Virus record (IMG/VR): IMGVR_UViG_3300020037_007643
Direction: 5' to 3' (one strand)
From: a virus
Length of the DNA stretch: 64,000 nucleotides
The notes beneath the pieces were generated by a model. That model saw nothing but the letters and a program-made list of their open reading frames with translations, did not search any database and was not told where the DNA came from. The translations under genes were made by a program, and so were the position numbers. Shown piece after piece: positions 1,228 through 64,000 of the stretch; position 1 is the first letter of the stretch; every line of letters begins with the position of its first letter.

Positions 1228-1230
1228 TAT

Positions 1231-5019: not shown

Positions 5020-5043
5020 AAACTTATGATATAATGGCTTGAT

Positions 5044-5472
5044 ATGGAGAATGTCCCAAAAAAGAAATATCCAAACTTGTCATCGTTAGGGAATATTACC
5101 ACCCAATACGGAGGTAAGACTAAGTACGAAAAGTTTCACCCTGGCGTAGATATCGCTAATAAAAAGGGAACACCTATTCCAAACATGGAGGAAGGTCAGG
5201 TTGTGGGTGTAAAGCCGGGGCAAAAAAACGGAGATCATGGTTTTGGGAATTCTATTTTAGTAAAAGATAAAAAGAATAACGTACATAGATATAGCCACCT
5301 TCGTGATATTATGGTAAAACCAGGGGAAATGGTTCCTAAGAATAAAATCATTGGATCAATGGGTGACAGTGGATCTAGTTATTCAAATTCTGGTGGCCCA
5401 TCTGACCACTTAGATTATAGAATTGTAGATTCTTTCGGCAAATTTAAAAATCCAAAGAAATATCTAAAATAA
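5044..5472 (+). CDS. M23-family metallopeptidase (peptidoglycan endopeptidase)
   Basis: HPGVDIA ... GDHGFGNSILV ... HLDY motifs typical of LytM/M23. Confidence 0.75.
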   Translation: MENVPKKKYPNLSSLGNITTQYGGKTKYEKFHPGVDIANKKGTPIPNMEEGQVVGVKPGQKNGDHGFGNSILVKDKKNNVHRYSHLRDIMVKPGEMVPKNKIIGSMGDSGSSYSNSGGPSDHLDYRIVDSFGKFKNPKKYLK

Positions 5473-5473
5473 T

Positions 5474-7630: not shown

Positions 7631-7631
7631 T

Positions 7632-13600: not shown

Positions 13601-14021
13601 TATACCACTCGAAAATAAATCATTAAATCAGTTTATAAAATTATTTAAAAACATAAAAAAAGAATACAATAAAAAAGGAATATCAAAAGCAAATAAAAAG
13701 GAATTAATAAAAGAAATTGAAGATTTTTTCCTTGATAATGTTGATAATGGAACATATACACAAGAAGACATTGATTCAATCGCTCGATGGGCTGCAGTAA
13801 CAAAAGATGGTAATATTTCATTTGACACAGGTAAGTACGATACCCCCCGGTATGTATATAGACTTAATACTATAATTAATGCATCACCTAAGGTTGCTAA
13901 GGCTTATCTTGAGGCATCTGAAGGTGTTGATTTCTCATTAAACCCTGAGACACCGAACATTGACACACCAACTCAAAAATACTCAAATTTAACTAACACA
14001 ATAAAAAACAACCCTAACTAA
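7632..14021 (+). CDS. Giant 2129-aa protein with an N-terminal His-Me (HNH-like) motif and a beta-prime-like catalytic-loop motif; candidate virion RNA polymerase or ejected protein
   Basis: IDHIIPLWLGGLDTLENKQVLNTKDH lies at about aa 150-190. VIHQADQDGDKMLI lies at about aa 1680 and resembles NADFDGDQM. The reading frame is uninterrupted. Confidence 0.8.
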   Translation: MANIKENSEYLDKISPSNFKNLQKSVQSGISSSYVSPYIRTPQKIETGIESESLMPEKVQVSLPSSSKMQELPESYLSSNFLPGQKTPEGEVMWGNPSDKTVARNISEKMGGGQYALDPTQPGIIIKSSRGYEPEENKILRGGRSKIEVQIDHIIPLWLGGLDTLENKQVLNTKDHIRKTKAQAIPLTLLTQGKITRDEAFTMALNWESYNVDDLPMPDKFGMITNLPREKADELSKIAYGLDREEKNKAKEEYYKLLGLDDAAIKAKQKFEFDVQHPKGTFGHSFTDSVKAVWKEIPSVFAKFGENDKGENTIAGEFGKGLVMGSPAGLAILEEPEERTTAEKIAYGTGYGISTIGTLGGFIKGLTKTRIVLSKIPGLGKVFAKSPVSNVVKPLPWNAGLFDMNPIKTIAPELSSKIKIPGFEKVKSALSKINNFGKETGKISKTQVVNATKALKDANRLAKAEGNLDLQQIPMEIDKRVAARIKYSPILRNAFNFGSFGVAKQAIHDGLDTQSESDFMDYAGTFATEAIMGSLFTTAGQNLKGYAKMVAPALVLSTINGESPEDAFASAVTMVGLHGMGSKMMQKSPLSRDVMNWKGDKHSTIVNKGEKYEDVIVREMNKVADEASNDVLNKWAPVNTTKSGNGSRKYTQKELESIKEEALTNIEQAAYDEGWTPRESDSELLKALASVRQLDKGGMGAIIRDRADIADVKSIAKQLQESKTITGVLGDKIPNHLYETYGNSTQKDLSPVNFTEKPSGKFSATGIYPLTGGGSTINEGKTRLNIEAFDKAVKSGEAPFGDNVFLMDRGSDYKNKMEFLNKTTPKEKIDKGEFTPFKNPQNTVEAFGVIKHPETGENTFISLGFVARESRIPKMNEKVNTEGPDSLIEYNKFNNKDTLSQSLRDNGIKGVWGRILPLKTGLMTTKGGKSSGKQEYHLRVQLTDGRFEDSINTERLAKESNNPATPVVESVEQVPNKKPVVDTTIQKQNDGTNIDTIGKTEIIPEQKTIVKTPEIPTTQDSGYVTSKNIENTIVNESDRADMTPVEKTVKKVKSPNFRNFIMTGRGEEGVNAGVASIISDPKTRRDFTEKNITKLAKEVSNNGENINEGWPKFIEIFTNKIKKATGDDSFEITNTKDLRDLSWLYRRKANSGTRKEIILNKGGYGLVFKEGSKENIGQLDKDIKKFNKENGLPEDSMEIIHVGKNNNYRDEIKNPTDSRNILYYLTDEIQHLDKKGYTPLGIVKKGSDGIVFIKKEPKLVKDFDTNPLKYLNKGEKTSEFSSDDKFIRTFSVDVLGWPKDATAGDFVKRSNLNTHRYDVSKETGKVKMHILKAKTIGDRKELDIDSSKFEDPQSEKARKAVESFKKGSEVDGKTIAGEDFFDKSIGGVDYDPTKYTTGSKPLISGYVEKADGSKVKIIMKSHMTRADAAYRKMLKEEYGLDLGRNEIVTFDTNMKLGPKEGSLDVNISDIYFKPISASEDGRVKSSLERKFSSNDPKVTEDMLAETAKRRKDFEAFNKEAMEANTKEKLEKVIDKYAEKYNLDKDELFYGPMGESFKLGAARVNLAHNLEKISKNMFMETVLSDNLPNSGRLFYSPSIKLPIDGPNKPWRYVKDDEVVLGAEFMKKRDIKEGDKVMIMRDPSYDINNITVAKAINGTKLGHESLGREHAVVSHFNERVIHQADQDGDKMLIIKVGEGGVPESYANAVLKRGNLATPFTEVNVTKSGYVTSKNIINVIKNQLVGDDQTSHISVVNRVMDTIIENDLKIKIYKVKPGEGRSKYDIFSNGNLVESGFTNSSPDDFIAIPSWGKTERQLRSQALQEALDSKKSLDIVNRSEDNNPSWMIKQVFKKLSDKNIPKNIKKSTKEKETYSDTILNIQKKFNIKKTEEKIGDTISNSEARSIKGAMSNIQKIFNIEKISEKSKNLDEVFTRLKPSIELIKNIKESGGRITPYQEKWLSLPETITFRIPDKVRLDADKLGVKNVRESLTDIPLENKSLNQFIKLFKNIKKEYNKKGISKANKKELIKEIEDFFLDNVDNGTYTQEDIDSIARWAAVTKDGNISFDTGKYDTPRYVYRLNTIINASPKVAKAYLEASEGVDFSLNPETPNIDTPTQKYSNLTNTIKNNPN

Positions 14022-15146: not shown

Positions 15147-16778
15147 TTAATAATTATTCTTGTCTTCTTCTTTATCTTTTATTTCATCTGAGACCGATGC
15201 TCCTATTGTGAGTGCAGTTGCCGCTGCTTCTGCTGCATTCTGTAATGCGATTATAATAACCTTAATAGAATCTATTATACCAGCTTCTATCATATCATCA
15301 ACAATCTTACCAGATATTGCATCATAACCAGAATCTTTATGTTCTTTCAGTCTCAAAGAGAGTTCTTTTTCCATTGCTTCAATATCGTTCTCACCAGCAT
15401 TTATCATGATTTTCTTGAGTGGCATCTTAATTGATTCCATGACAATATTGAAACCAATTTTTTCTTCTGCTGTCATTTCCTTACTTTCAAGTGACATACT
15501 GTCTGCAATACTAAACAACTCAGAGCCTCCACCTTTTACGAATCCTTCCTGAAGTGAATTTCTTGCCTCATCAATAGAGTCATCAATCTTCATTTTAAGA
15601 TATTTCATTCCGGCTTCTGTTAATGCTCCTATCTTTATTATACCAGCTCCTCCAGAGAGTTTTCCTATTCTTGACTCCATATTCTTAATATCAATGTTTG
15701 ATTTAAGTTCTGAAAGTTGAGTTTTAAGTTCTTCTATTCTATTATTAACAAGTTCTTTTGTATTTGGATTACCAATGATTACTGTTTCATTTCTAGATAC
15801 AACAATCTTCTTTGCAAAACCAACACTATCAAGTTCCGCTGTCTTCATTGGGTTCCCTGTTTCATCTGAGATTATCTTTGCACCAGTCAATATTTCAATA
15901 TCCTTAAGTATCTCTTTCTTTTCAACACCAAACCCTGGAGATTTAATTGCAACAACACGAAATCCTCCTCTCATATTATTACCCACGAGTGTCTCAAGCG
16001 CCTCACCATCAACATCTTCTGCTATAATAAGAAGTTCTCCAATACCAGATGTTGCCATTTTTTCTTGAATAGGAAGAAAGTCTTTGATTTGGATCATCTT
16101 TTTATCAACAATCATAACTGCAACATTATCGTATTCTGCCTCCATCTTATTTGGATTGTTGACCATCCACGGGTTAATCCAACCTCTCTCTATTTTCATT
16201 CCATCAACAATTTCAAGAGTAATACCACTACTCAAAGTAGACTCCTCTGCTTTGACGATTCCATCTTTACCCACCTTATCAAATGCTTCAGCTACAATAG
16301 CACCACATTCTTCTGATTCAGATGATATAGTAGCAACTGCTTTCAATTGATCATTTGTTTCAATCTTAGTAGCTCTTTTCTTTAGTTCTTCAATTACATA
16401 AGCAGCACCCTTTTCAATACCCTTTTTAATTGCAATAACATTAACACCCTTTTTTATCTGGCTAAAACCTTCATTAAAAATTGATTGTGTTAACACAATA
16501 GAAGCTGTTCTTGCTCCTCTTGCTTTATCGTTAGTTTTAATTGCAACATCTCTAACAATGTCTGCTCCCATATTCTGAAGACGATCCTTTAGTATAACTG
16601 TTCGTATGCCATCAAGGCCATCATTACTGATACTTGGTGGCATAATACCTCTATCAACAATGATATTTCTACCACGAGGGCCGAGTGTTACACCAGCTAG
16701 TTCAGCTACTGTATTTATACCTTTTTGTATTCGAGTTAATGCACCTTCCCCAAATGTAATTTCTTTATTTATAGCCAT
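15147..16778 (-). CDS. groEL: GroEL-like (Cpn60) chaperonin
   Basis: N-terminus ...VTLGPRGRNIIVDRG... aligns to GroEL VTLGPKGRNVVLDKSFG. 543 aa. Confidence 0.85.
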   Translation of the reverse strand: MAINKEITFGEGALTRIQKGINTVAELAGVTLGPRGRNIIVDRGIMPPSISNDGLDGIRTVILKDRLQNMGADIVRDVAIKTNDKARGARTASIVLTQSIFNEGFSQIKKGVNVIAIKKGIEKGAAYVIEELKKRATKIETNDQLKAVATISSESEECGAIVAEAFDKVGKDGIVKAEESTLSSGITLEIVDGMKIERGWINPWMVNNPNKMEAEYDNVAVMIVDKKMIQIKDFLPIQEKMATSGIGELLIIAEDVDGEALETLVGNNMRGGFRVVAIKSPGFGVEKKEILKDIEILTGAKIISDETGNPMKTAELDSVGFAKKIVVSRNETVIIGNPNTKELVNNRIEELKTQLSELKSNIDIKNMESRIGKLSGGAGIIKIGALTEAGMKYLKMKIDDSIDEARNSLQEGFVKGGGSELFSIADSMSLESKEMTAEEKIGFNIVMESIKMPLKKIMINAGENDIEAMEKELSLRLKEHKDSGYDAISGKIVDDMIEAGIIDSIKVIIIALQNAAEAAATALTIGASVSDEIKDKEEDKNNY

Positions 16779-16790: not shown

Positions 16791-17741
16791 TTAATCTTCT
16801 AATTCTTTTGGACCAAATCCTATATCACCTTTTTTATCTGCAAAATCAGAACTTTTTGGTTTATCACTTTCAATTTCCCTTAAGACTGCAATTGTTTCAT
16901 CAAGGTTATTTCCTAGACAGATGACAGAAATAAGACATTCAGTTAGAGAAGCAAACGATAATCCTTTTGTTTTACTTATCCATTCTTTTACTTTCTGTGA
17001 TTTCGGTAGTTTATTTTTTAAGAACTGAATTCTAACTTCATCAGATGGAGCAACAATTTTGTATATTCTATCAAAACGTCTAGGTCGAGAAACAATTCTA
17101 CGGTCAAGATGTTCTGGGTAATTTGTTGTTGCAATATTAATAACTCTATTTATCTGACTATCACCATCAAGTAATTGAAGTATATCAGACTCTCCGTATC
17201 TTGCTATTATAGCATCAATGTCTTCGAACACGCAAACAATGGGTCTATTGGGTTCAACTTTTCTAAATGTATGTAATCCTTGAACGAAGAATTTTGGGTG
17301 ATCACAAACAAAAACAATTCCACCCCTTTTGATAACATCTTGTGCTATTTGCCATACCATACTACTCTTACCAGACCCTCCGGGGCCATAAAATAAATAC
17401 CCCCTACGATGAAGAAAACCATTATCTTTAAAAATCTTTTCCTTACCCCAGAAGTCATTGACTTCATTCATAACTGAACCAATAATATCACCCTTGAATG
17501 TTTGTATTGAATCAATCTTAATATCTCTTCCCATAAATATTGATTGACCATCTCTATTATCTACAGTTACAGAATAACATCCTGACGGTATTCTTTCGTG
17601 AGTTACACTGAGGGCTTTAAATACCTTAGATCCAACAGATCCCCATTGGTTTGGTTTATTAACCTTCTCCTCTAATTCGCTTATATCCCACACACCCTCA
17701 TCATTAGGGCTAGGTTGTTCGTTTCTCATTTTTATTTCCAC
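16791..17741 (-). CDS. AAA+ ATPase
   Basis: Walker A GYLFYGPGGSGKSSM and Walker B IVCVFEDIDA. Confidence 0.8.
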   Translation of the reverse strand: MEIKMRNEQPSPNDEGVWDISELEEKVNKPNQWGSVGSKVFKALSVTHERIPSGCYSVTVDNRDGQSIFMGRDIKIDSIQTFKGDIIGSVMNEVNDFWGKEKIFKDNGFLHRRGYLFYGPGGSGKSSMVWQIAQDVIKRGGIVFVCDHPKFFVQGLHTFRKVEPNRPIVCVFEDIDAIIARYGESDILQLLDGDSQINRVINIATTNYPEHLDRRIVSRPRRFDRIYKIVAPSDEVRIQFLKNKLPKSQKVKEWISKTKGLSFASLTECLISVICLGNNLDETIAVLREIESDKPKSSDFADKKGDIGFGPKELED

Positions 17742-18324
17742 CTAAATTAATATTGGTAATATACAATCTTCTTCCCACTAATGTCTCCTTTAAATCCTTA
17801 ATTATCTCATCTCTTAGTTTGTCATTTTTCTGTATATAACATATTGTAACATGTGGTTTATATTCTGAATATGTGTCAATGTGTGGGAGTAACTGCATCC
17901 TGTTATGACCCTCAATTATATTATCAGTAAGTTTAAGTTTCGCAACAATACAATAATACTCTTCATCTTCATAAGGGGAATCAAATGAATCAATGTCTTC
18001 TATTTGAACAGATTTACAATTCCAGTCTTTTAGAAGTTCTCTTATTTGATCTTTGTATTCTTCTGCTTCCTTCATTAAACCATAAAGAAGTGTCATGTGG
18101 GGTGTCTCTTCTGCTACCCATCCATTTATCCAAAATTTATCTTTATTTTTTGCGTAATACAAATATTTAGGCTCAACATAATAAAACCTTGAATATTCCT
18201 CATCATCAACATCTGTATTATTATAAATTGGGTCAACGTCAAGCATCACACAACCCAATTTAGACAAATCTATATTAAGGTCTTTGTATACACTTGGAAA
18301 ATCATGTGCTTTAATTTCTTTCAT
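17710..18324 (-). CDS. 2H phosphoesterase (LigT/2'-5' RNA ligase-like cyclic phosphodiesterase)
   Basis: Two H-x-T/S-x motifs, HMTLLYG and HVTICY. Confidence 0.6.
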   Translation of the reverse strand: MKEIKAHDFPSVYKDLNIDLSKLGCVMLDVDPIYNNTDVDDEEYSRFYYVEPKYLYYAKNKDKFWINGWVAEETPHMTLLYGLMKEAEEYKDQIRELLKDWNCKSVQIEDIDSFDSPYEDEEYYCIVAKLKLTDNIIEGHNRMQLLPHIDTYSEYKPHVTICYIQKNDKLRDEIIKDLKETLVGRRLYITNINLGGNKNEKRTT

Positions 18325-25869: not shown

Positions 25870-26361
25870 CTACCTAACATTCTTATACTCAAACCATATT
25901 ATGTCAAGGAGGGTATCTTTAAAATCACTCTTCTTTTTCCCATCCTTCCAGTCTTTTGGTGAGTGTGAGATCTTTTTTTTAAAATCTATTTTTTCACCCC
26001 GTAGTATCTCTAGTATTTGAAAGTATTTATTATTATAACAATCTCTTGCTGAAAATATTAAACATTCACTTGATTCTCCTGTTTTATTGTTTGTTACATT
26101 ACCTTGTGTTGTGTACATAAACATCTTAACATTTGCTTTGTTTTGTTTTAATACTTTCCCAGTTTCTTTTAATATTCTATCAACCTCCCCGGCTACATAA
26201 TTGTAAAGCGGTATGTCCATTATTGAAACAGTTTTATTTTTATCTAAGATCACTGCATAACAGATAGGTAATAGTTTGTTTCCATTTTGCACGGATTCTT
26301 TATTTTTACTTGTTATGTAATCGTAGATTTCCTTTACTTTACTTGAGATTCTTTTTGACAT
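25870..26361 (-). CDS. Hypothetical protein
   Basis: 163-aa ORF. Confidence 0.5.
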   Translation of the reverse strand: MSKRISSKVKEIYDYITSKNKESVQNGNKLLPICYAVILDKNKTVSIMDIPLYNYVAGEVDRILKETGKVLKQNKANVKMFMYTTQGNVTNNKTGESSECLIFSARDCYNNKYFQILEILRGEKIDFKKKISHSPKDWKDGKKKSDFKDTLLDIIWFEYKNVR

Positions 26362-27368
26362 TTTATTTCTTCTTTAATTGCGTTAAGTACGGCCTCGTAA
26401 GTATCTCCATTCTTAATAAGGAAGTTTTTTGCATTATTGCGTCCAACTCCAAGTTTCGTATCATTAAATGAATAGGTTGTACCTGTCTTATTAATGACCC
26501 CGATTTTCTCCCCATAATCCAAAGCATCGCCATGTAAATCCAATCCTTTACCATAATATAATTCAACTGATGTTTTCATAAAAGGGAATCCGACTTTATT
26601 TTTTACCCCTGTAATATTCAAGAAATTTCCTATCTGCTTATCGTCTGAATCAACTATTTTTTCACCCTTAGATACCTCAAGTCTTACTGATGCAAAAAAT
26701 TTCAACGCCTTTCCTCCAGGAGTGGTTTCTTTTTTTCCATATATAACACCAATCTTCTCTCTAAGTTGGTTTATGAATATTACAATTGTTTTAGATCGAG
26801 ATATTGAACCAGTTAGTACTCTAAGAGCAGCACCGAGCTTTCTTGCTTGAAGACCCATTGTATCCTTAAGAAAATCTCCTTCAATTTCTGTCATTGGAGC
26901 CATAGCCGCAACACTATCTACAACAATGATATCAAATGCATTTGTATCAACAAGCTCCCTGAGTGTTTCCATTGCAGCTTCTAAGTGTAATGGTTGTGTA
27001 ACAAGTAGTTTTGATGTATCAACACCAATAGAAGATGTGTAGCGTGGATCATAAGAGAATTCAGCATCAATAAGGGCAGCTCTTCCACCTTGTCTTTGAA
27101 CTTCCGCGATTAAATAATGAGACAGTGTTGATTTTCCACTAGACTCCTGACCAAACAATTCTATCATTCTTCCCCGTGGAATACCTCCACAGCCAAAAAC
27201 TGAATCTAGTCCAAAACTCCCAGTTGGTATTGCTTTTACTTCTGAAACATCAAGATCCTCATCGACAATAACCATGTCGTTTCCATATTTTTTTTGCATC
27301 CGAGCCATTACATCTTCAACAAGCTCGTTTGGGTTATTTACATCTTCTAATTCTTTTTTCTTTGCCAT
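26334..27368 (-). CDS. recA: RecA recombinase
   Basis: GLDSVFGCGGIPRGRMIELFGQESSGKSTL ... IVVDSVAAM aligns along its length with bacterial RecA. Confidence 0.9.
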   Translation of the reverse strand: MAKKKELEDVNNPNELVEDVMARMQKKYGNDMVIVDEDLDVSEVKAIPTGSFGLDSVFGCGGIPRGRMIELFGQESSGKSTLSHYLIAEVQRQGGRAALIDAEFSYDPRYTSSIGVDTSKLLVTQPLHLEAAMETLRELVDTNAFDIIVVDSVAAMAPMTEIEGDFLKDTMGLQARKLGAALRVLTGSISRSKTIVIFINQLREKIGVIYGKKETTPGGKALKFFASVRLEVSKGEKIVDSDDKQIGNFLNITGVKNKVGFPFMKTSVELYYGKGLDLHGDALDYGEKIGVINKTGTTYSFNDTKLGVGRNNAKNFLIKNGDTYEAVLNAIKEEIKCQKESQVK

Positions 27369-29352: not shown

Positions 29353-29358
29353 AATTCC

Positions 29359-29387
29359 ATTATACTCCCCTATATTAAAGAAGTCAA
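29359..29387 (-). promoter_or_regulatory. Conserved promoter copy, leaderless configuration
   Basis: Reverse complement reads TTGACTtctttaatataggggagTATAATggaattATG. Confidence 0.7.
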
Positions 29388-29393
29388 GTATCA

Positions 29394-33289: not shown

Positions 33290-33318
33290 AATCTTTTAAG
33301 ATTTAAACTTGTAATTAC

Positions 33319-33347
33319 ATTATACTCCCCTATATTAAAGAAGTCAA
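33319..33347 (-). promoter_or_regulatory. Conserved promoter copy
   Basis: Reverse complement reads TTGACTtctttaatataggggagTATAATgtaattacaag. Confidence 0.7.
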
Positions 33348-33805: not shown

Positions 33806-35461
33806 ATGTATATAAATTATGAAAAAACAGAATATTATGAGTTTACATTTGAGTTCAGATTTCATGAGGATATTATAGAATACTGTAGATTTATAAGATC
33901 AGCGTATGGTTGGAAAGAGTTTACTTTTAATAATGGTAAATGGAGATTTAATGATTCTGCTATAATGTTTTTGATAAAGAATAAATACCCAGATGTGGTG
34001 ATTAGCCAAGAGGCACTTTCTGCTGTTCAAAAAACTGATGATGAAAAAAGAAGTGAATCAGAGATAGAGGAGAATGCAAAGAGGATAAAAAATTCAATTG
34101 ATTCTGATATTGTTATTGATGGGATTAAGGGGGAATTATATAATTACCAAAAAATTGGTGTTGAGTTTTTTATGAATAATAATGGGAGGGCAATACTGGC
34201 GGATTCCCCAGGGAGTGGAAAAACACTACAGACTCTTGCTTTTATCGTAAAACAGAAATTTAAAAAATCTTTAATTATTTGCCCAGCGTCTGTGAAATTT
34301 TCTTGGCAGTTAGAAGTTGAAAGGTGGACACATTTAAAATCTTTTGTTGTTGATGGAAAAACAAAAACACAAGAAATTCCAAATGATGTTGATGTTATAA
34401 TAATTAATTATGATATTCTTAAGAAATTTTATAAGTGGTTAGTTAATGTTAAATTTGACACAATGGTTTGTGATGAAAGTCATTTAATAAAAACACCAAC
34501 ATCTGTAAGAAGTAAAGTTGTTAAACTTTTATCGAGAGATATACCTTCAATAATAATGCTTAGTGGAACTCCGATCTTGTCAAGGCCTATCGAGATGTAT
34601 AACATGCTTAATATTCTAGATCCGAAAACATGGAATAGTTATTATGGTTTTGCTGAGAAATATTGTGACGGCCAGAAGGGATATTATGGGTATCAAGCAA
34701 AAGGGGCAACAAACCTTGCAGAGCTTAGTGAAAAGATTGGTAAGTATTTTTTAAGAAGAACAAAAGATCAAATATTAAAAGAGTTACCACCAATGATCCA
34801 AATTTTTAGACCGATTGAATTATCTGGAGAATTTAAATCAAATTATAAAAAAATATCTGATGAGTTTGTAAAATACCTTCGTGAAAATAAAGGTAAAAAA
34901 GATAAGCAAATTGAAAAATCTCTTTCTGCTGAAAAGCTTGTGAAAATTAATTACTTAAGAGAGTTAACTTCTCTTGGAAAATTAGATTCAACAAGAGAAC
35001 TTATTGATTCAATGATAGATTCAGGAGAGAAGGTGATTGTGTTCTCTTGTTTCAATGAACCATTAAAAATTCTTCGTGATGAATATCCGGATTCTGTTTT
35101 AATTATTGCTGAAACAAGTGTTAGTGAAAGAGGAGAGTTGGTCAAAAAATTTCAAGAAGACCCAAACTGTAAGGTATTTTTCGGAGGTATTAAATCTGCA
35201 AGTGCTGGTATAACTCTTACCGCTGCAACAAATGTAATTTTTATAGATTACAGCTGGACTCCATCTGATCACGAACAGGGTGCTAATCGTTTACATCGAC
35301 CAGGGCAGAAAGCTGATTCTGTTAATATTTATAGCTTGCACGCCATTAATACAATTGATGATTTTATGGCAAGGTTGCTTAAAAAGAAGTCAAGTATATT
35401 TAATCAAGTTATTGAGACGCAAAAATCAGAATTAGATTATTTAATTGAAGGAACCTCTTGA
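33806..35461 (+). CDS. SNF2-family helicase
   Basis: Walker A ADSPGSGKT, DEAH-box CDESH and a C-terminal helicase domain. Confidence 0.85.
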   Translation: MYINYEKTEYYEFTFEFRFHEDIIEYCRFIRSAYGWKEFTFNNGKWRFNDSAIMFLIKNKYPDVVISQEALSAVQKTDDEKRSESEIEENAKRIKNSIDSDIVIDGIKGELYNYQKIGVEFFMNNNGRAILADSPGSGKTLQTLAFIVKQKFKKSLIICPASVKFSWQLEVERWTHLKSFVVDGKTKTQEIPNDVDVIIINYDILKKFYKWLVNVKFDTMVCDESHLIKTPTSVRSKVVKLLSRDIPSIIMLSGTPILSRPIEMYNMLNILDPKTWNSYYGFAEKYCDGQKGYYGYQAKGATNLAELSEKIGKYFLRRTKDQILKELPPMIQIFRPIELSGEFKSNYKKISDEFVKYLRENKGKKDKQIEKSLSAEKLVKINYLRELTSLGKLDSTRELIDSMIDSGEKVIVFSCFNEPLKILRDEYPDSVLIIAETSVSERGELVKKFQEDPNCKVFFGGIKSASAGITLTAATNVIFIDYSWTPSDHEQGANRLHRPGQKADSVNIYSLHAINTIDDFMARLLKKKSSIFNQVIETQKSELDYLIEGTS

Positions 35462-35486
35462 CTTCTTTAATATAGGGGAGTATAAT
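35458..35486 (+). promoter_or_regulatory. Conserved promoter copy
   Basis: TTGACTtctttaatataggggagTATAATggaattgtaa. Confidence 0.7.
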
Positions 35487-35532
35487 GGAATTGTAATAGT
35501 CGAAGTATTACAATATTAATAATAAAAATTAA

Positions 35533-37296: not shown

Positions 37297-37666
37297 AAAT
37301 AAAATAAGAGTATTTACTAGTGGTGCTAGTAGGAATTCAGATGCAGGCAAATTTGATTACGAAGGATTTAATAATCCAGTTGTTGATCACTCTTTTGCTA
37401 AATACATGCACGGCCATAGGATGATGGAAGATGGATCATTGAGAGATAGTGATAATTGGCAGAAAGGTATACCTAAAGACGAATTGGCAAAGTCTTTAGT
37501 AAGACACATTAATGATTTTAGATTAATACATCGTGGCTATAAGGTATTAGATGAAAAGGGCGATGAGGTAACTATTGAAGATTGTCTCAATGCTATTAAA
37601 TTTAATTCTAATGGATACTTACTTGATATACTTAAGGGAAGTAAAATAATAAAAAGAGGTGAATAA
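37223..37666 (+). CDS. Hypothetical protein (true start likely the internal ATG near 37271)
   Basis: 147-aa ORF whose 5' end overlaps the previous gene. Confidence 0.45.
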   Translation: MKQIINQTMKQTNKKKMKKKVNISKNKIRVFTSGASRNSDAGKFDYEGFNNPVVDHSFAKYMHGHRMMEDGSLRDSDNWQKGIPKDELAKSLVRHINDFRLIHRGYKVLDEKGDEVTIEDCLNAIKFNSNGYLLDILKGSKIIKRGE

Positions 37667-38132
37667 AATAAATGAAAAAATAAAGGTGTTGTTTCTTGAT
37701 ATGGACGGTGTAGTGAACAGTGAGGCTTGCTACAAACGTGGTTTATTTAAAACAGATTTCCCTGTTGATGCATATATGGCTTTTCTTGTAGGTAAAATAC
37801 AACTAGATACAAATTGCAAAGTTGTTTTATCATCATCGTGGCGACACCACCCTGAAAGTGTTGAGCAAATAAATAAACAACTTGTACCATTGTTGGACAT
37901 AACAGGAAGTGAACCGCTTGACCCAAGCAGACCAAGAGGAATAGAAAACTGTCAACGTGGAAGAGAAATTAAAGCATGGTTGGATAAACATCCAGAGGTT
38001 GAGAAGTATGCGATACTAGATGATGAAAATGATATGCTACCAGAGCAACAAGAAAACTTCTTTCAGACGTCTTGGAAAACTGGAATTACAAAAGAAATAG
38101 CTGATGATGTAATTAAACATCTCAGTGATTAA
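37659..38132 (+). CDS. HAD-superfamily phosphatase (polynucleotide 3'-phosphatase-like)
   Basis: Motif I LFLDMDGVVNS (DxDGV). Confidence 0.55.
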   Translation: MNKINEKIKVLFLDMDGVVNSEACYKRGLFKTDFPVDAYMAFLVGKIQLDTNCKVVLSSSWRHHPESVEQINKQLVPLLDITGSEPLDPSRPRGIENCQRGREIKAWLDKHPEVEKYAILDDENDMLPEQQENFFQTSWKTGITKEIADDVIKHLSD

Positions 38133-43814: not shown

Positions 43815-43870
43815 AGCAATCCCCTGAAAACTATTTGTTTTTGGGGGATTCACTATTTATGTAAAAGTAC

Positions 43871-43899
43871 TTGACTTTTTTAATATAGGGGAGTATAAT
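43871..43899 (+). promoter_or_regulatory. Conserved promoter copy
   Basis: TTGACTtttttaatataggggagTATAATggaagtataa. Confidence 0.7.
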
Positions 43900-43935
43900 G
43901 GAAGTATAACAATAATATTCTGTTTTCGTATATAT

Positions 43936-50232: not shown

Positions 50233-50679
50233 TTAGTTGTTTGTAACTGATTCAACTGCTTTTACTGCTGTTGATTTTGTGATCTCATTAATGAGTTCAT
50301 TTGTTTTCTCATTAAGTTCATCAATTGATACTTTGATTTCACCGTTTTGGATACTTTCAATTTTCTTTACCTTTTCATCCTTAAGTTCATTGAGTTTCTG
50401 AATTTTTTCATTTTCAGATACAATTAACTTTTCAATCATCTCTACTCCTTTCTTTATATATTCTTTCTTTTCTGCAAAATCTGGATCTGCTTCAACGAGT
50501 TGTGTTTCTGCAAAGTTTTCTCGTGCGATGTCTTTCTTGAGATTCATTACGTTTTCTGTGTGTTCGTTTATGTTCTTTTCGATATCAGAAATTTGTGTTT
50601 GAACTCTTGAAACCATGTTCATTCTAAGTCCATCTCTTGCAATAATCTTAAGTTTTTCTACGATTGTGTTGTAATTCAT
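50233..50679 (-). CDS. Coiled-coil hypothetical protein
   Basis: 148-aa ORF rich in E/K heptad-like sequence. Confidence 0.5.
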   Translation of the reverse strand: MNYNTIVEKLKIIARDGLRMNMVSRVQTQISDIEKNINEHTENVMNLKKDIARENFAETQLVEADPDFAEKKEYIKKGVEMIEKLIVSENEKIQKLNELKDEKVKKIESIQNGEIKVSIDELNEKTNELINEITKSTAVKAVESVTNN

Positions 50680-51005
50680 ATATATGTTGTTTTAATTTTT
50701 TTAATTATTTTTGTAATCTTTCTTTTAATGTCTTCTTGTTTTTTACCAAATCCATATCCAGGGTTTTTAATTAATTTATTAATAACCCGTGTGCATTGTA
50801 TTTGTGTTAATCCCCAAACACCTTCTCCTCTTTCGTTTGTGTTTGGATTTAGTAATTGGAATCCATAGTCTTCTTGATTTTCTGGGTTTTTTCTGAATAT
50901 AGCCCATAAATCTTGGTTAAACTGTACTATTATCCCAGTATTCCTTTCTTCTACGTCTAAGCATATTTTTATATTTTCTGGGATTCTAATTTGTTGTGTC
51001 TTCAT
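50676..51005 (-). CDS. Hypothetical protein
   Basis: 109-aa ORF. Confidence 0.45.
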   Translation of the reverse strand: MKTQQIRIPENIKICLDVEERNTGIIVQFNQDLWAIFRKNPENQEDYGFQLLNPNTNERGEGVWGLTQIQCTRVINKLIKNPGYGFGKKQEDIKRKITKIIKKIKTTYI

Positions 51006-51411
51006 GTTTTAATAGATGTCCGTCAAATTTCATTTTTGTGAACATTTTAGGAAATGCTATTTTATACATCCATACTGAGTAACTACATGCTTTTAACTCT
51101 GATTCACCCAATATGTGATGTGCGAATTCATGTAATGCACTAATGATACTTGGTTTACTTTTGCTTATATTTATTGTCCTTGTTTCTTGTAGGTAATAAT
51201 TTCTTTCTTCTTCTGTTGTTATACAGCAAGGATTATCATATAATTTACATAAACTTGTTATTAGTTCATAGAGTGCATTATGTTTGTATTCAGTTGTTTT
51301 TTCTTTCCACTTATTATAATGTTTTTCTTTCCATTCTCCTAAGATTAAAATGTCTTCATTTATCCCTTCTGGAGGATTTTCCAGTATTTCTTCTTTTGTT
51401 GGATATATCAT
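50986..51411 (-). CDS. Putative zinc metallopeptidase (HExxH)
   Basis: ALHEFAHHILGESE. Confidence 0.45.
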   Translation of the reverse strand: MIYPTKEEILENPPEGINEDILILGEWKEKHYNKWKEKTTEYKHNALYELITSLCKLYDNPCCITTEEERNYYLQETRTINISKSKPSIISALHEFAHHILGESELKACSYSVWMYKIAFPKMFTKMKFDGHLLKHEDTTN

Positions 51412-59002: not shown

Positions 59003-59320
59003 TCAATGTTTTGCATGTTTTTTGGTTGTATATTTCTGTATTAGGTATTCCATGGGATGGATATAACCCAAATTCATCCAAAAACACAATACCGAATCCA
59101 CTATAGTTTTTTCATATGGGTAATTCTTTTTTGCACATCTATATAATGTAAATAGATATATTCCAAAGATTTTAATAGGTCTTCCACTAATCCAGTTTTT
59201 AGGGCATTTGTATCCTATTTTGTAATACCATGTTTTATTGTATTCTTTTATACATTTAATACATAGATATTTGTATTTCTCTATTTCTGTGAAACATTTT
59301 GCGCAGTTATATTTTTTCAT
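59003..59320 (-). CDS. Zinc-ribbon protein whose C-terminal extension is probably spurious
   Basis: N-terminus CAKC..CIKC. The 3' part is the reverse translation of the 59-bp repeat. Confidence 0.35.
   Translation of the reverse strand: MKKYNCAKCFTEIEKYKYLCIKCIKEYNKTWYYKIGYKCPKNWISGRPIKIFGIYLFTLYRCAKKNYPYEKTIVDSVLCFWMNLGYIHPMEYLIQKYTTKKHAKH
59044..59102. repeat. 59-bp dispersed repeat (58/59 identical to 1891-1949 inside the 1262-aa structural gene)
   Basis: ggtattccatggGatggatataacccaaattcatccaaaaacacaataccgaatccacta versus the same sequence with A at position 13. Confidence 0.8.
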
Positions 59321-59523: not shown

Positions 59524-59895
59524 TTATATTATGTTTTTTTCCATGAGGATTTTCCTTAATTTTGGATTTCCCCAGTTCTTTATTATTTGTGTATTTTTTT
59601 TTGTTATAGTTATATCTATGTAATCTCTATCGCAATTATTGGTAATACACCAAGAGTATTTGTATCCTAAATTTTCTTTTTCACCTCTTTTGTATAAAGT
59701 ATCAATGATAGAAGCTCTATTTAGTAAGTTTTCGTTTGAGCATATCCAAACAATACTTAAGCTTACTGCCCCTTTTGGTATGAAGATTTTTCCTGTTATC
59801 TTTTTATCGTATGCTATTATTTCTATTACATCACCATGTTTAAGATATTTTGCTATTGTTGTAGCATCTGGTGATTCTAAACTAATTGGTCTCAT
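59524..59895 (-). CDS. Paralog family member 2
   Basis: C-terminus IIKNWGNPKLRKILMEKNII. Confidence 0.55.
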   Translation of the reverse strand: MRPISLESPDATTIAKYLKHGDVIEIIAYDKKITGKIFIPKGAVSLSIVWICSNENLLNRASIIDTLYKRGEKENLGYKYSWCITNNCDRDYIDITITKKNTQIIKNWGNPKLRKILMEKNII

Positions 59896-60027
59896 GATGT
59901 TGATTTTAATGATTATTAATGATATATCCCTGGTCTCTTTAACTTATGGGTATATTTCTTATTTAAATGCCTCTATTTACTCTTATACGCCTCACTGTGA
60001 GGTTTAAATGTGTAAGATGGTATCTAG

Positions 60028-60099
60028 TCTCCTTACCATGAATCGAACATGGATTTAATCCTTAGAAGGGATTCGTTCTATCCATTAAACTATAAGGAG
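60028..60099 (-). tRNA. tRNA-Arg (anticodon UCU)
   Basis: Reverse complement has acceptor CTCCTTA/TAAGGAG, D-arm GTTT-AATGGATA-GAAC, anticodon stem AATCC/GGATT, loop CTTCTAA, T-arm CCATG-TTCGATT-CATGG. Confidence 0.7.
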
Positions 60100-60244
60100 A
60101 ACACCACTAAGTTATCATATGATAACTATCATAGTGGTAAAAATTAAAAAGGTCTGAGTATCATTACTAATCCATGCGTGAACATCTAATAGTAAAACTG
60201 GAATGATTTTATGTAACGTTCCACTTTCGTTACCCTTTTCAATG

Positions 60245-60317
60245 TCGGTCATCTTGGATTTGAACCAAGGACTTCCTCGGTATAAGCAAGGCACTCTACC
60301 AACTGAGTTAATGACCG
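60245..60317 (-). tRNA. tRNA-Ile (anticodon UAU)
   Basis: Reverse complement has acceptor CGGTCAT/ATGACCG, D-arm ACTC-AGTTGGTA-GAGT, anticodon stem CCTTG/CGAGG, loop CTTATAC, T-arm CTTGG-TTCAAAT-CCAAG. Confidence 0.65.
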
Positions 60318-60406: not shown

Positions 60407-60769
60407 CTATATTATGTTTTTCTCCATGAGGATTTTCCTTAATTTACGATTTCCCCAGTTCTTTATTATTTGTGTCTCATCTTTGGTTATTACAAGGTCA
60501 CAATCTGGAATTTCTCTAATACACCAAGAGTACATATACTCAAGATTCTTTCTTTCGTTTCCTCTGTATAAGATTTTAGGTATGGTTGCTCCATCTAAAT
60601 TAGGTTTGTTTGAGCATACCCATACAGTTTCTGATTCTATAGCAAGTGGTATGAAAATTCTCCCTTTTATTTTTTCACTACCTGTTGGTCCTAAAAATAT
60701 TGTTATATTATCCCCATGCTTTAGTTCTCTCCTTATGTCTCTGCAATTTGGATTTACTAAATACTTCAT
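60407..60769 (-). CDS. Paralog family member 3
   Basis: C-terminus IIKNWGNRKLRKILMEKNII. Confidence 0.55.
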   Translation of the reverse strand: MKYLVNPNCRDIRRELKHGDNITIFLGPTGSEKIKGRIFIPLAIESETVWVCSNKPNLDGATIPKILYRGNERKNLEYMYSWCIREIPDCDLVITKDETQIIKNWGNRKLRKILMEKNII

Positions 60770-61696
60770 ATTGCTATATATACTATAATGCTAATAATAA
60801 TGGCTATAGTAAAACCCATATAATAGCCAGTTTTTCTCGCTTGCTTACGCATAACTTCCATATCTTCTTTTGTGTACATGTATTCTTTCATATGTTTTAA
60901 TTTTACTAATAATTATGGTCCCTTCTGGAATTGCACCAGATTCTCTCCCTCCACATGGGATTGTTCTACTGATGAACTAAGGAACCGAAATAAGTATTAA
61001 GGAAGGAGTTTTCGATTGTCTCCTGATTATGGCCGCCTATAATCCCTTTTTCTCAATGGTTAATACTTAAACCCTGTGTTACTCTCAATTTCTCTTAAGT
61101 ACAGGATACAAAAGGTAATATATGATAAAGCCCCTGATGTTTAGGATAAAATCCTTTTAATATATATTACTTTCTATTACTCTATTATTACCTTTTGTAT
61201 TCCACACTCAATAAAAGAAAAATGGAGTAATATGGATAATCAAGTATGTAAGGCGTATGATAGCATATTTATTCTTTGCGTTCATAACTCCTTTTTATTT
61301 CCTTACTTCCTAGGTATATCCCAGCCTGAGCCAGTTTACCCTAAGTTGATTATCCATATTACCCCACTTCTCTTTTAAATTATATATATGATAGAGAGCA
61401 TTAGCCTTAATGCTTTATATATAACCTTCGAATGTTTTTATTTCCTCTCGGACTCTCTGTCATTCTGATTTAAATTACTGGTGTAATCTTTAATTCTTTC
61501 TATTAAATTGTAAAAGTACTAAGCACCCAAAACAATCAATAATCCTCTGTATTGATTATCTTATTGCATAAAGTATATATAGCTAAATATACTTATAGTG
61601 CTCATTATCGGATATAAGCTAGTTGGTTAACCTTTGAGTCCAAGTGTTATTCTATGGACTATATAGTTACTAGTTTGGGTGCTTAATACTCTTACG

Positions 61697-61850
61697 GTAT
61701 ATTCTACTTAGGGGGATGAACTACGAAGTTTTATGTGATTCCGTTCACTAGGTTATAACACCTATTTTCCTATCCAGTATCCGTTTCACAAACGTTAGGA
61801 CTCAGAGTAGTTCTTTGAAAGATACTTCACCCCCATAAGTAGAATATACT
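61697..61850. repeat. Inverted repeat of about 20 bp that flanks roughly 110 bp and shares its core motif with the 58.1-kb hairpin
   Basis: GGTATATTCTACTTAGGGGG ... CCCCCATAAGTAGAATATAC. Core CTTA(T)GGGGG/CCCCCATAAG also occurs at 58094/58170. Confidence 0.5.
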
Positions 61851-62425
61851 TATATTTAATTATTTGAAGAAAATAACTGAAAGAGTCATAAGAATTACAA
61901 TAATACCTAATACTGTATCTATTCTGTCATTCTTAATTACTCCTGTATGATAAAACCCTACGCCTATTATGGCTAATGCTATTGTTTCCATATGATATAT
62001 ATGTTTAAATTACTTAATAATGTTATAAATACTAAAAGCTACCATTAAATCTAATATGAACCATTTATGAAATAACCCCATTATTTACAATATGAGTTGT
62101 TTACATAAAAGCAAGATTCAGTTGATTTATATAAAAATGGTTATAGAGTCTTTACTATCTCTATGTTACAAGATTATTCTTTTTAATGATAGCTTTTAGT
62201 ATTCATAGTTTTGTATTACTAAAACACTTTACTCTGGTGGCAGGGAATCTTTCACTGTTTTTCAAGTTATCCCACCCTGCTGGTTGAACATCCCTTTTAC
62301 GAGGGCGTTGTCGGTCTTTTTTTATGGCGTAAACCACAAGTAGGCACTTTTCTTTAGCTCTACGACCTAGCTTTTCCTTCTTCGGCCACACCAGGATAAA
62401 ATGTTTTAATTTCTTTCTTGTCCTT

Positions 62426-62664
62426 GTTTCTGAGCCCCGTTGTACGTTCCTTCGTAGCGCGGGGGCAGAGAATATAGATAATAGGATATTATAATAGATT
62501 TTACTCGATTTTCAATCGCGATTGGATGATTGTCCGATCCAACACCCATCTCCTATCAAAATAATATTATAATAACACAGCTACTCTATACGGGACCATT
62601 CCTCATAAACAAAAGAAAAAGGGCTATGTTTCCATAACCCTCAATCTTCAGCTTACGCGAGCTC
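62426..62664. repeat. Left arm of a long imperfect inverted repeat (about 240 bp)
   Basis: It is the reverse complement of 63728-63987. The ends are near-perfect. The middle has indels and about 90 percent identity. It contains the palindrome AATCGCGATT. Confidence 0.8.
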
Positions 62665-62874
62665 ACGCACAGTCTCCCCGCCTCAGGAAAAGATTATGAC
62701 CCTACGCCCGCCTTCACCCTAGGGCCCCACTCTTCTTTGGATTATTTATTATTAGCTACTAACTATGTGACCCCATACCTAGTAGTTAATAGCCAGGGCC
62801 CCACTCTTTTTTGGAAGGACAATGCAATACAAATGCAATCCTTATCCAATTATTACTAACATATTACATTCAAT

Positions 62875-63231
62875 ATGGAAAACAAAATCAGTGTGTGGGG
62901 AATTTATGAGAAAGCTGGCAAATACTGCCGAGTTTCAGTAAGCTCCCAATTATTCAAAGAACTCACAAGTCGCACGAATATCTTGCCATTTACCACAAGT
63001 AAAGATGCAAAAGAACGTCCTATCAAAGTGTACAACGTTGATGGTACAAAGATATTTACTCGCGATATTGCACAGTCTAACGATGATGGCACACCTATGA
63101 CTCAGACTGGTACAGATGGTAAAGAATATCCTGTTGTTAAAACTTCTGTCTACATGACAATAAAAGACGCAGAAAAATTCTTGACTAACAAGCCAGACTC
63201 TGTAGAAAAGTACGAGATTAGTATTGATTAG
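62875..63231 (+). CDS. Hypothetical 118-aa protein, the only ORF inside the IR-flanked element
   Basis: ORF MENKISVWGIYEKAGKYCRV...; no transposase-like motifs. Confidence 0.45.
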   Translation: MENKISVWGIYEKAGKYCRVSVSSQLFKELTSRTNILPFTTSKDAKERPIKVYNVDGTKIFTRDIAQSNDDGTPMTQTGTDGKEYPVVKTSVYMTIKDAEKFLTNKPDSVEKYEISID

Positions 63232-63433
63232 TACTAATTAGTGTCTCGGGTCCCTAAAGCCTCGTATAAGCGATTATACGCACGAATAGGGGCCTTGTAA
63301 CGAGCTAGTATGCTTAGTATCTGGTCGAGAACCCCAGAAAAACGCATGTTAGTTCATTACAGGGCTTCTTTAATGTGAGAGTTCCCAGTCTCCCAGACTC
63401 ACGGACTCCCAGATTCAAGTGGTCCCGGTGTTC

Positions 63434-63520
63434 AAACAAATGTTCTCTTTAATAGAGATTAAGCGTTTCGTAGTATCGTATATAAACTACACAATTTCTC
63501 TTTAATAGAGATTAAGCGTT
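63434..63520. repeat. Two direct copies of TTCTCTTTAATAGAGATTAAGCGTT, about 62 bp apart
   Basis: At 63434-63458 and 63496-63520, each followed by similar ...GTATATAA.CTA sequence. Confidence 0.7.
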
Positions 63521-63727
63521 CTATAGAACCGTATATAATCTATAAACAAGGCTAGTTTATACAGCCTCATTATTAGTAACCAACTCAAATATATGTATAT
63601 ACAAGGAGTATTAGGTATCTATGTAGGGCTGTATAAAGCAAACTTCATGAAAGGAATGCCAAAAAACAAATGGTATTTCACGGGTAACTCCATACACGAA
63701 GTAGTGCAAAAAATGACAGCTGTGATA

Positions 63728-63987
63728 GAGCTCGCGTAAGCTGAAGATTGAGGGTTATGGAAACATAGCCCTTTTTCTTTGGTTTATGAGTAGTGGTCCC
63801 GTATAGTTATGTGTTATTAGTTTAGGTCCTGTTATAATATATATTCTATTTTTTATAGGATAGAGGTGTTGGATCGGACAATCACCCAATCGCGATTGAA
63901 AATCGAGTAAAATCTATTATAATATCCTATTATCTATATTCTCTGCCCCCGCGCTACGAAAGAACGTACAACGGGGCTCAGAAACAA
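63728..63987. repeat. Right arm of the long inverted repeat
   Basis: It begins at the shared GAGCTC and extends to within 13 nt of the window end. Confidence 0.8.
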
Positions 63988-64000
63988 TATATTCAAGAAC

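Follow-up and report, generated by a model that had tools for sequence, protein, structure and literature searches.

When a polymerase switches template, the chimera that results has recognizable hallmarks, namely an inverted orientation of the joined segments, a span of less than 10 kb and a complementarity of at least 2 bp; in the set analysed in PMC1855051, 85% of the chimeras showed the inverted orientation and 77% a complementarity of 2 bp or more. At its genome ends, the phage SU10 carries 193-bp terminal repeats, and its gene map (early genes 69-125 and 1-3, late genes 4-24) places these ends between the early and late blocks; a hairpin intermediate is mentioned for the duplication of the T7 repeats (PMC4281155). 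Both cases are relevant to the stretch of viral DNA studied here (64,000 nt, hereafter the window), whose last 1.6 kb contain two long inverted arms around a central segment. As argued below, this apparent 1.5-kb "element" is most likely no unit of the phage genome, and neither a mobile nor an invertible element.

The left arm (armL, 62424-62664, minus strand) and the right arm (armR, 63728-63987, plus strand) are reverse complements of each other around a centre of ~1.06 kb. Global alignment of the reverse complement of armL with armR gave 228 identical, 10 mismatched and 28 gap columns out of 266 (~86%), with near-perfect ends and indels in the middle, and a repeat search of the window detected two inverted pairs, 62424-62571/63840-63987 (148 nt, 93%) and 62586-62672/63720-63806 (87 nt, 93%). 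This similarity is far above chance. A 19-mer of the arm occurs exactly twice in the 64 kb, for an expectation of 0.02, and BLAST searches with both arms against the window recovered these two copies alone. The arms share CAATCGCGATTG (62513-62524 and 63887-63898) and the palindrome GAGCTC at their inner ends (62659-62664 and 63728-63733). A first-pass annotation made from the sequence alone had described the imperfect inverted repeats, the better conservation of their ends, the palindrome, the shared sequence and the 13 nt left between the right arm and the window edge. All these observations hold, and every feature that it named was found, with coordinates off by at most 2 nt (the outermost arm positions are 62424 and 63987).

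We compared the locus with 16 other contigs of the same phage, retrieved from JGI, NCBI and Logan, that cover it wholly or partly. None of the 16 has a second arm; they contain a single arm at most, and this single-arm layout recurs across the three sources and in at least 10 samples. The centre (seg, 62665-63727, plus strand) is conserved in all relatives with 96.5-99.6% identity and an unchanged internal order. To its left lies B', a 246-nt GC-rich spacer, followed by a divergent Cpn10-HU-terminase-portal operon, and the arm is found only to its right, leading either into early block A or, as a variant, into flank C. The common order thus runs from a leftward late/structural operon (portal, intein-containing terminase, a 1004-aa protein, HU and Cpn10) through B', seg and one arm to rightward early genes (A or C). 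ArmR has the position and orientation of the arm in all relatives and reads rightward into flank C, and armL reads leftward into block A. One of the relatives, L002, has a block A that is 99.96% identical to that of the window, yet joined to seg in the common orientation; its sample also holds a 79.9-kb contig (L034) that is 100% identical to window positions 1-11227.

The flanks of the locus vary, with B, D or F on the left and A (with or without the block called A200) or C on the right. B-B'-seg is carried by L001, L003, L004 and L008, D-B'-seg by L002, and B'-seg by L005 and L039-L043; L011 has a different left flank, and L007 shows the end of seg followed by the arm and A. A200, the last 206 nt of block A next to armL (62218-62423, minus strand), is GC-rich and polymorphic for presence: L001, L002 and L007 have it with 100% identity, and it is absent from L008, L011 and L041, where block A aligns just to 62217. 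Flank C, the alternative to block A beyond the arm, is represented in the window by its first 13 nt (63988-64000, plus strand), and the order B'-seg-arm-C is found in L003 and L042 with 239 and 271 nt of C, respectively. A metagenome scan with the flank-C pattern gave no match, and the 30-aa start of the C ORF, padded with X, retrieved no candidate. Two inverted B'-seg-arm copies per genome, a possibility considered to explain the B/D and A/C flanks, were dropped, as no contig has a second copy, and strain-level indels were preferred because the gene order is already complete with the common A-type layout. B' was likewise discarded as a structured RNA, having no special fold (z +0.35 and +1.0).

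This comparison bears directly on the nature of the structure. The first-pass annotation had argued against a simple insertion sequence, with good reason: Pfam and PHROG scans of the ORFs detected no transposase, and there is no target-site duplication, the flanks being TTTCTTGTCC (62414-62423) and TATATTCAAG (63988-63997). As one alternative it had proposed a non-autonomous foldback or MITE-like transposable element, here inserted in the phage genome. Long terminal inverted repeats devoid of a transposase and confined to this contig might suggest such an element, but besides the absence of a target-site duplication, no empty site (A joined directly to C) exists in any contig and the relatives have seg and one arm at the same place. 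Nor are there further copies. BLAST found none in the window beyond these two arms, and the 16 relatives have one at most; the arm 19-mer and a seg 21-mer are absent from IMG/VR, and the seg 21-mer is also absent from the GTDB genomes. The arm 19-mer was detected at 22 metagenomic loci, of which just one, situated on the contig of L008 and belonging to this phage locus, could be aligned with the window or parts of it. The transposable element is consequently close to refuted, and we give it almost no weight.

Each of the two arms has an exact counterpart among the single arms of other strains. ArmL is 100% identical to the sole arm of L007, where it directly follows the end of seg, and armR is 100% identical to the arm of L003, which runs on into flank C just as in the window. 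L001, L002 and L003 each have a single arm of the armR type, with armL-type SNPs in the outer part in L001 and L002, and L008, L011 and L041 have a longer form with ~30 extra nt. ArmL and armR are thus two strain alleles of one putative terminator-promoter cassette, which recombines freely among strains. It is difficult to reconcile this pattern with a real rearranged strain, in which the cassette would have been duplicated in inverted orientation and its divergent copies would flank seg, driving A to the left and C to the right. The 86% identity of the arms would suit old paralogues, but independent divergence of paralogues would not yield arms that are each 100% identical to a sole arm elsewhere. 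Likewise, the locus is a hot spot of rearrangement and flank C is real, being present in L003 and L042, but C is always attached normally to B'-seg-arm and the two-arm layout occurs in no other contig. Moreover, the late operon adjoins B' in the common layout and would have no room in that of the window without further large rearrangements. Even with the predicted terminators and promoters intact in both arms and facing outward into genes, we regard such a strain as unlikely.

The sole difference between the window and the common layout is one new junction, 62664|62665, where the inner end of the arm meets the opposite strand of seg at its far end. It is the only junction that is new with respect to all other assemblies, and it coincides with a 4-nt microhomology, GCTC (62661-62664). 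The window reads ...TTACGCGAGCTC|ACGCACAG at this point (CGCGAGCTC|ACGCACAG from armL to the start of seg), and the other contigs read ...CCTCCCCGCTC|ACGCACAG from B' to seg and ...CTGTGATAGAGCTCGCGTAAGC from the end of seg to the arm, so that only 4 nt are common to both sides. The points joined are 1,067 nt apart, the second being the B'/seg boundary. Past the junction, seg and the cassette are read again, with the other strain's allele, and the sequence stops 13 nt after armR, one base short of a difference between L003 (C) and L042 (T) at the first position past the window end. Position 64000 is probably also the end of the contig; a protein identical to the 118-aa product of seg is listed in a protein cluster table on a 70,605-nt JGI contig. 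The earlier suggestion of a terminal structure of the genome is retained only insofar as the structure sits at this probable contig end. A De Bruijn graph artefact was ruled out because merely 4 nt are shared; the junction did not arise from k-mer overlap, and therefore reads carrying it existed.

The two-arm structure was probably caused by a fold-back chimera together with strain mixing at the contig end. A strand coming from block A would pass through the cassette, stop at its inner end and, via GCTC, resume synthesis at the B'/seg boundary, 1,067 nt away and on the other strand. Such an inverted template switch, or a snap-back at this short microhomology, may have arisen while the DNA was amplified or its ends were repaired in vitro, or may represent a rare aberrant replication product, and the assembler of a mixed-strain sample would then have followed the fold-back molecule to the end of the contig. 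One cassette read once in each direction would thereby take on the appearance of long terminal inverted repeats. The junction has the features reported for template-switch chimeras (PMC1855051), as it is inverted, joins points 1,067 nt apart and has the GCTC overlap. A fold-back of a single molecule predicts, however, that the two sides would have the same arm and both lead into block A, whereas the arms are 86% identical and flank C lies on the right, so that a second assumption is needed: the assembler may have changed strain inside seg, or the event may have been intermolecular. In addition, the reads carrying the junction, possibly numerous, would equally fit a real rearrangement.

One such rearrangement would be a genuine inversion, in which the 1.07-kb seg flips between B' and the arm and the window combines a flipped left junction with an unflipped right one. 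The orientation of seg with respect to block A and the arm is indeed opposite to that in the other contigs, the junction is no k-mer artefact, and the phage encodes RecA and RuvC. However, the reciprocal junction, in which the end of seg would meet the reverse complement of B' (CTGTGATAGAGC|GGGGAGGATAGACGG or CTGTGATAGAGC|GGGGAGGATAG), is present in none of the contigs covering the seg ends, and a serine or tyrosine recombinase was detected by Pfam or PHROGs in none of the 34 ORFs scanned out of the larger set in the window. A short inverted repeat, GCTCACGCACAG ... CTGTGATAGAGC, is present at the seg ends in the strain of the window, where 9 of 12 positions match, but only 6 of 12 match in L040-L043, and a homology of 4-12 nt is too short for RecA action. 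Strain mixing would still be required to account for armR and C on the right. We therefore consider inversion quite unlikely, and the comparison gives no support to the invertible switch put forward in the first-pass annotation, although the window does contain what would be one of the two junctions of a flipped state.

The fold-back may also have had a biological cause, a special case of the same explanation in which either the arm's inner end or the boundary between B' and seg would be a physical DNA end, that is, a terminase cut or terminal-repeat boundary at which snap-back occurs repeatedly. Snap-back from a fixed 3' end would then be comparable to the hairpin intermediate of T7-type repeat duplication. 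This would explain how one chimeric junction collected enough reads for assembly, and the locus is situated where the early and late modules meet, as the SU10 genome ends are, in a phage that shares the Pfam families of the SU10 portal and adaptor. Nevertheless, no contig begins or ends at either boundary, B' has no special fold, and the large terminase has at most 32% identity to the enzyme of any cultured phage. Its hits among named cultured phages come from a Rhizobium phage and from cyanophages with sizes of 171-189 kb, which are T4-type myoviruses with headful packaging, so that fixed ends can only be supposed. A fixed end seems very unlikely. More generally, we see little chance that seg is a flip-flop segment of the early/late border, either inverting or fold-back copied from a fixed end, that operates without a recombinase. 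If it were, the small gene, the structured RNA and the repeat arrays would be re-oriented between two divergent promoters, possibly in connection with terminal-repeat duplication or with the timing of early versus late transcription.

Leaving aside the fold-back, which we continue to prefer as the cause of the two-arm structure, the single-arm locus has the content of a control region. By consensus match, each arm consists of a predicted intrinsic terminator and an outward sigma70-like promoter. In armL these are a terminator-like hairpin at 62642-62619 and the promoter TTGAAA-16-TATAAT at 62515-62488, both on the minus strand, and in armR a hairpin at 63750-63773 and the same promoter at 63896-63923, both on the plus strand; both promoters match the consensus at 11 of 12 positions and point outward, that of armL toward block A and that of armR toward flank C. 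The hairpin, GAGGGTTATGGAAACATAGCCCTT, is followed by TTTCTTT and lies immediately past the stop codon of a 48-aa ORF. The terminator is thus predicted to end seg transcripts, and the near-consensus promoter, which has a leader hairpin, probably fires into the early genes. The regulatory cassette suggested by the first-pass annotation comes close to describing the arms, each with its predicted terminator and strong outward promoter. Look-ups of the 44-aa and 47-aa ORFs of the arms gave no record.

Seg itself carries two copies of AGGGCCCCACTCTTYTTTGGA, 74 nt apart (62721-62815, plus strand), located 5' of the 118-aa ORF. The repeat search defined them as 62721-62741/62795-62815 (21 nt, 95%), and both are kept in the relatives except L011, in which the different left flank takes away the first copy. 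The second pair of direct repeats is a tandem of two 53-nt copies (63436-63488/63489-63541, plus strand, 83%), each with the palindrome TCTCTTTAATAGAGA, found in all relatives that cover the stretch. Both pairs had been reported by the first-pass annotation, as had the 118-aa ORF (62875-63231, plus strand), correctly described as devoid of transposase features. The ORF is a real gene. Its 13 alleles differ at 15 synonymous and 8 non-synonymous sites (dN/dS ~0.14), and a phmmer search with the protein gave 68 hits, among them proteins of 99-119 aa that are 26-46% identical to it, as well as repeat proteins with the Pfam domain SBBP. It is a member of a small-protein family and has an SBBP beta-propeller-blade-like stretch. 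Neither Pfam nor PHROGs matched it directly, or any other ORF of the element, an alignment-based scan of IMG/VR gave no distant relatives, and the AF2 model (pLDDT 43) was too poor for a fold search.

Downstream of this ORF, a candidate structured RNA or 3'UTR (63248-63425, plus strand) has a folding energy of -68.6 kcal/mol (z = -3.9), equalled by none of 200 shuffles. Every substitution in its paired columns preserves the pairing, including one double change from A-U to G-C, although the shuffle control for this conservation is weak (175/500) because of the low diversity. It has no Rfam match; neither has any part of 61000-64000 or the natural locus in L001. The possibly coding 48-aa ORF (63593-63739, plus strand), whose stop codon lies within the arm (GAGCTCGCGTAA), was called by the gene callers on L001-L004 and L007; every difference among the predicted peptides is an amino-acid replacement.

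The locus is of modest interest in itself. In an uncultured phage with a genome of 90 kb or more, it forms a mostly non-coding control region of 1.6 kb between the early and late genes, and it holds a conserved small gene, a candidate structured RNA, repeat arrays and the putative terminator-promoter cassette. It also calls for caution, as long inverted repeats that lie close to where a mixed-strain contig ends can come from a double reading of a single regulatory block, and classing them as a mobile element or a switch requires support from reads. Were reads to show the junction to be frequent and accompanied by its reciprocal, this would be an inversion without a recombinase in a lytic phage and would merit further study. 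A tblastn search with the adaptor for the closest cultured relative gave no match, and neither did DNA similarity searches of GenBank phages, in near and distant modes, with 62200-64000 and 40000-64000.

Compared with known systems, the window resembles MITEs and foldback transposons in its long terminal inverted repeats and lack of a transposase but, unlike them, the locus is single, has neither a target-site duplication nor an empty site, and has one-armed relatives. As in invertible switches (the Hin, Gin and Cin segments, fimS and invertons), there is a segment of ~1 kb with inverted repeats, small genes and outward promoters whose orientation to one flank differs among assemblies. In contrast with these switches, no recombinase gene was found and no reciprocal junction was seen at this locus, the long repeats are confined to one contig, and the short repeats of the seg ends are not conserved. 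With the early region of podophages of the SU10/phiEco32 type (PMC4281155), the locus shares small genes, a terminator and one or more sigma70-type promoters at the early/late border, here as predictions, and the portal and adaptor fall in the Pfam families of SU10. Unlike those phages, this one has a genome of at least 90 kb, is AT-rich, encodes GroEL/GroES, RecA and 11 tRNA genes, and has a terminase only distantly related to known ones. Inverted template-switch chimeras are usually too rare for assembly, whereas the junction of the window was assembled, and its arms are different strain alleles, for which a single-molecule chimera is insufficient alone. It is nonetheless with these chimeras (Lasken & Stockwell 2007, PMC1855051) that the window shares an inverted second segment within 10 kb, a complementarity of 4 nt and a position at the probable end of a contig.

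The inverted repeats that the first-pass annotation had reported near the right edge of the window are real: a repeat search recovered 62424-62571/63840-63987 and 62586-62672/63720-63806, each at 93% identity, and the global alignment of the left arm (62424-62664) with the right arm (63728-63987) spans 266 columns, of which 228 are identical, 10 mismatched and 28 gapped. Both motifs, GAGCTC and AATCGCGATT, the 118-aa ORF (62875-63231, +) and both pairs of direct repeats were likewise found within 2 nt of where they had been placed. An arm 19-mer is present twice in the window, where 0.02 occurrences are expected, and searches with each arm retrieved no further copy in these 64 kb. A MITE or foldback transposon, one of the alternatives initially put forward, is scarcely credible, since there is neither a target-site duplication nor a further copy nor an empty site.

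Exact-protein look-ups with the 118-aa ORF, a 48-aa ORF ending inside the right arm, 43- and 120-aa ORFs, and allelic variants of the 118-aa protein located 16 other contigs of the same uncultured phage that cover the locus wholly or partly, from JGI, NCBI and Logan assemblies of at least 10 samples. Compared by BLAST and multiple alignment, none of the 16 has the two-arm layout. Their common order is a leftward operon B (Cpn10 and HU first, then a 1004-aa protein, an intein-containing terminase and an SU10-type portal), a 246-nt GC-rich spacer B' (9541-9786 in contig L001) that is missing from the window, the segment found between the window arms (62665-63727), a single arm, and the reverse complement of early-gene block A, which forms the left flank in the window. 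Variants include an extra ORF D replacing B beside B' (L002), a different left flank F that joins the segment at about its position 88 (L011), and the right flank of the window, C, in place of A past the arm (L003 and L042). L001, L002 and L007 carry a 17-nt tandem duplication at the outer end of the arm, which the window lacks, as well as A200, the 206-nt end of block A beside the left arm (62218-62423), missing from L008, L011 and L041. This GC-rich stretch between arm and block A, cleanly missing in some strains, may be a small insertion or an early-operon leader RNA. A 79.9-kb JGI contig, L034, is 100% identical to window positions 1-11227; in L002, from the same sample, block A is 99.96% identical to that of the window, yet it is joined to the segment in the common orientation. 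Contig L039 (Logan SRR26425194), comprising part of B', the segment and part of the arm, has at both ends AGCAGTGGTATCAACGCAGAGTAC, the sequence of the SMART/template-switch primer, so that the run would be a cDNA or SMART-amplified library; by these end sequences, amplified libraries of this phage exist.

The sole arms of these contigs differ from one another as the two window arms do. That of L007 is 100% identical to the left arm and is placed after the end of the segment, whereas those of L001-L003 are of the right-arm type, with left-arm-type SNPs in the outer part of the L001 and L002 arms and crossover points that differ between the two. In L008, L011, L041 and L043 the arm is lengthened by one or two additional units of ~35 nt (…TAGGAGATAGGTGTTGGAT); this unit is present in one to three copies per arm, the number differing among strains. 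The difference between the window arms is thus of the kind found between strains at one locus, and on these alignments the arms are alleles of one sequence. SNPs across the segment are also mosaic among contigs, which fits a freely recombining population, and the phage itself encodes RecA and RuvC. If a strain truly carried two divergent cassettes, both arms would be intact and face outward, as seen here, but such a strain is rather unlikely: each arm is 100% identical to the sole-arm allele of another sample, and there would be no room for the late operon, which normally starts beside B'.

Relative to the common layout, the only novel junction in the window is ...TTACGCGAGCTC|ACGCACAGTC..., at 62664|62665. 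To the left lies the inner end of the cassette, coming from A, and to the right the start of the segment, elsewhere preceded by B' (...CCTCCCCGCTC|ACGCACAG); the two sides have only GCTC in common. Because a de Bruijn graph is unable to invent a 4-nt join, the junction must have been present in actual DNA molecules or reads. The strand path runs from A through the cassette, crosses to the opposite strand at a point 1,067 nt ahead, and comes back through the segment and the cassette. A true inversion of the segment, although it would account for a real junction, is unlikely considering that the reciprocal junction is absent from every contig, that no recombinase was detected among the 34 scanned window ORFs, and that the sole inverted repeat at the segment ends matches at 9/12 positions, down to 6/12 in L040-L043. 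We consider it probable that the two-arm structure is instead no genomic feature, and that a mixed-strain contig ends here in a fold-back spanning an ordinary terminator-promoter block. A single cassette would have been read twice, from A inward and then, after the fold-back, from the segment outward, hence the inverted repeat. The main weakness of this fold-back explanation is its need for a second assumption: a fold-back of a single molecule would yield identical arms with block A on both sides, but the second arm is of a different allele and opens into C. The assembler would have switched strain within the shared 1-kb segment, or else the switch would have occurred between molecules of two strains.

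The window ends 13 nt past the right arm, one base before a C (L003) versus T (L042) difference, and all three sequences entering flank C break within 13-271 nt; we infer that window position 64000 is the end of the source contig and marks a strain-level branch. A protein cluster table lists the identical 118-aa protein on a 70,605-nt JGI contig. The inverted join, ~1-kb span and few complementary bases of the junction are typical of polymerase template-switch or snap-back chimeras; among MDA chimeras, 85% are inverted, 77% show complementarity of at least 2 bp, and the span is <10 kb in most (PMC1855051). If one of the two breakpoints were a fixed DNA end, feeding snap-back synthesis, this would explain the abundance of one junction, and the position between early and late modules agrees with the SU10 terminal repeats; the terminase, however, has only distant matches (at most 32% identity), from which the packaging mode is not readable, and we regard such an end as very unlikely. 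A flip or snap-back that proceeds without a recombinase at the border of the early and late modules is also improbable.

Purifying selection acts on the 118-aa ORF (variant sites: 15 synonymous, 8 non-synonymous; dN/dS ~0.14), whose product is a member of a small-protein family (99-119 aa, 26-46% identity) and resembles SBBP beta-propeller blades in its central part; the AF2 model was unusable. No other non-coding stretch of the locus is as conserved (95.5-100% identity) as 63248-63425 (+), downstream of this ORF, which has a folding z of -3.9 against shuffles. Among six nearly identical alleles, every substitution in paired columns is compatible with pairing on the + strand, one of the changes being compensatory, from A-U to G-C, which is suggestive of a candidate structured RNA; it matched no Rfam family. 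No fold signal was found in B'.

The window covers part of an AT-rich phage genome (~33% GC) with 11 tRNA genes, and encodes GroEL, SbcC, a primase-helicase, a helicase, RecA, RuvC, a DnaC-like loader, dUTPase, peptide deformylase and an SPFH protein. The portal and adaptor are of SU10 type, and for such a podophage-like genome it is unusual to combine GroEL and a separate Cpn10, RecA, RuvC, SbcCD, peptide deformylase, a large-terminase intein, a 2H-phosphoesterase/Acb1-like protein and an RNA-repair HAD domain (loci at 15147-16778 (-), 26334-27368 (-), 17710-18324 (-) and 37659-38132 (+) in the window, and 9175-9438 and 1117-3666 in L001). Queries with DNA 40000-64000, DNA 62200-64000 and the adaptor protein found no match among GenBank phages. 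Proteins of 2129 aa (7632-14021, +) and 718 aa (5474-7630, +) have no PHROG match; their genes follow the one for a 1262-aa protein with endolysin-type domains, and by this position they may be virion-internal or ejection proteins from a new lineage. That lysin-domain gene contains one copy of a 64-nt direct repeat (1887-1950 and 59040-59103, 63/64 identical), the other lying in a small-ORF region of early block A; the repeat is kept in L001, L002, L034 and L045. Two paralogous small genes of the early block, 59524-59895 (-) and 60407-60769 (-), encoding 123 and 120 aa with ~72% DNA identity, enclose tRNA-Arg and tRNA-Ile (60027-60317). The ~1.04-kb region 50243-51283 is missing from the otherwise 99.9%-identical L045 (JGI 3300020036), a strain-level indel. 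A promoter-like element of ~34 nt, TTGACTTCTTTAATATAGGGGAGTATAATGGAA (TTGACT-17-TATAAT), exists in four near-identical copies (29353-29388 (-), 33312-33347 (-), 35457-35496 (+) and 43868-43909 (+)), at least three pointing toward the adjacent gene and at least one having a start codon ~7 nt past the -10 hexamer; they are probably one class of phage promoter.

Each arm contains a terminator-like hairpin and T run (63750-63773 (+) and 62642-62619 (-)), directly past the stop of the 48-aa ORF, and, in its outer half, a predicted TTGAAA-16-TATAAT promoter matching the consensus at 11/12 positions (63896-63923 (+) and 62515-62488 (-)), followed by a GC-rich leader hairpin. The palindrome AATCGCGATT is located just upstream of this promoter, sharing one base with the -35 hexamer, and is itself preceded by the GATC-containing motif TGGATCGGAYAAT, present once per arm (62534-62546 and 63866-63878) and as two full and one partial copy in B'; together with the variable ~35-nt units, these copies look like iterons or protein-binding sites. 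The predicted promoters point outward, from the left arm into block A and from the right arm into flank C. Judging from these consensus matches, the arm would be a terminator-plus-early-promoter cassette, a reading also based on its likeness to phage SU10, where a few genes are followed by a terminator and then by the sigma70 promoters of the early operon (PMC4281155), the same layout as in the arm.
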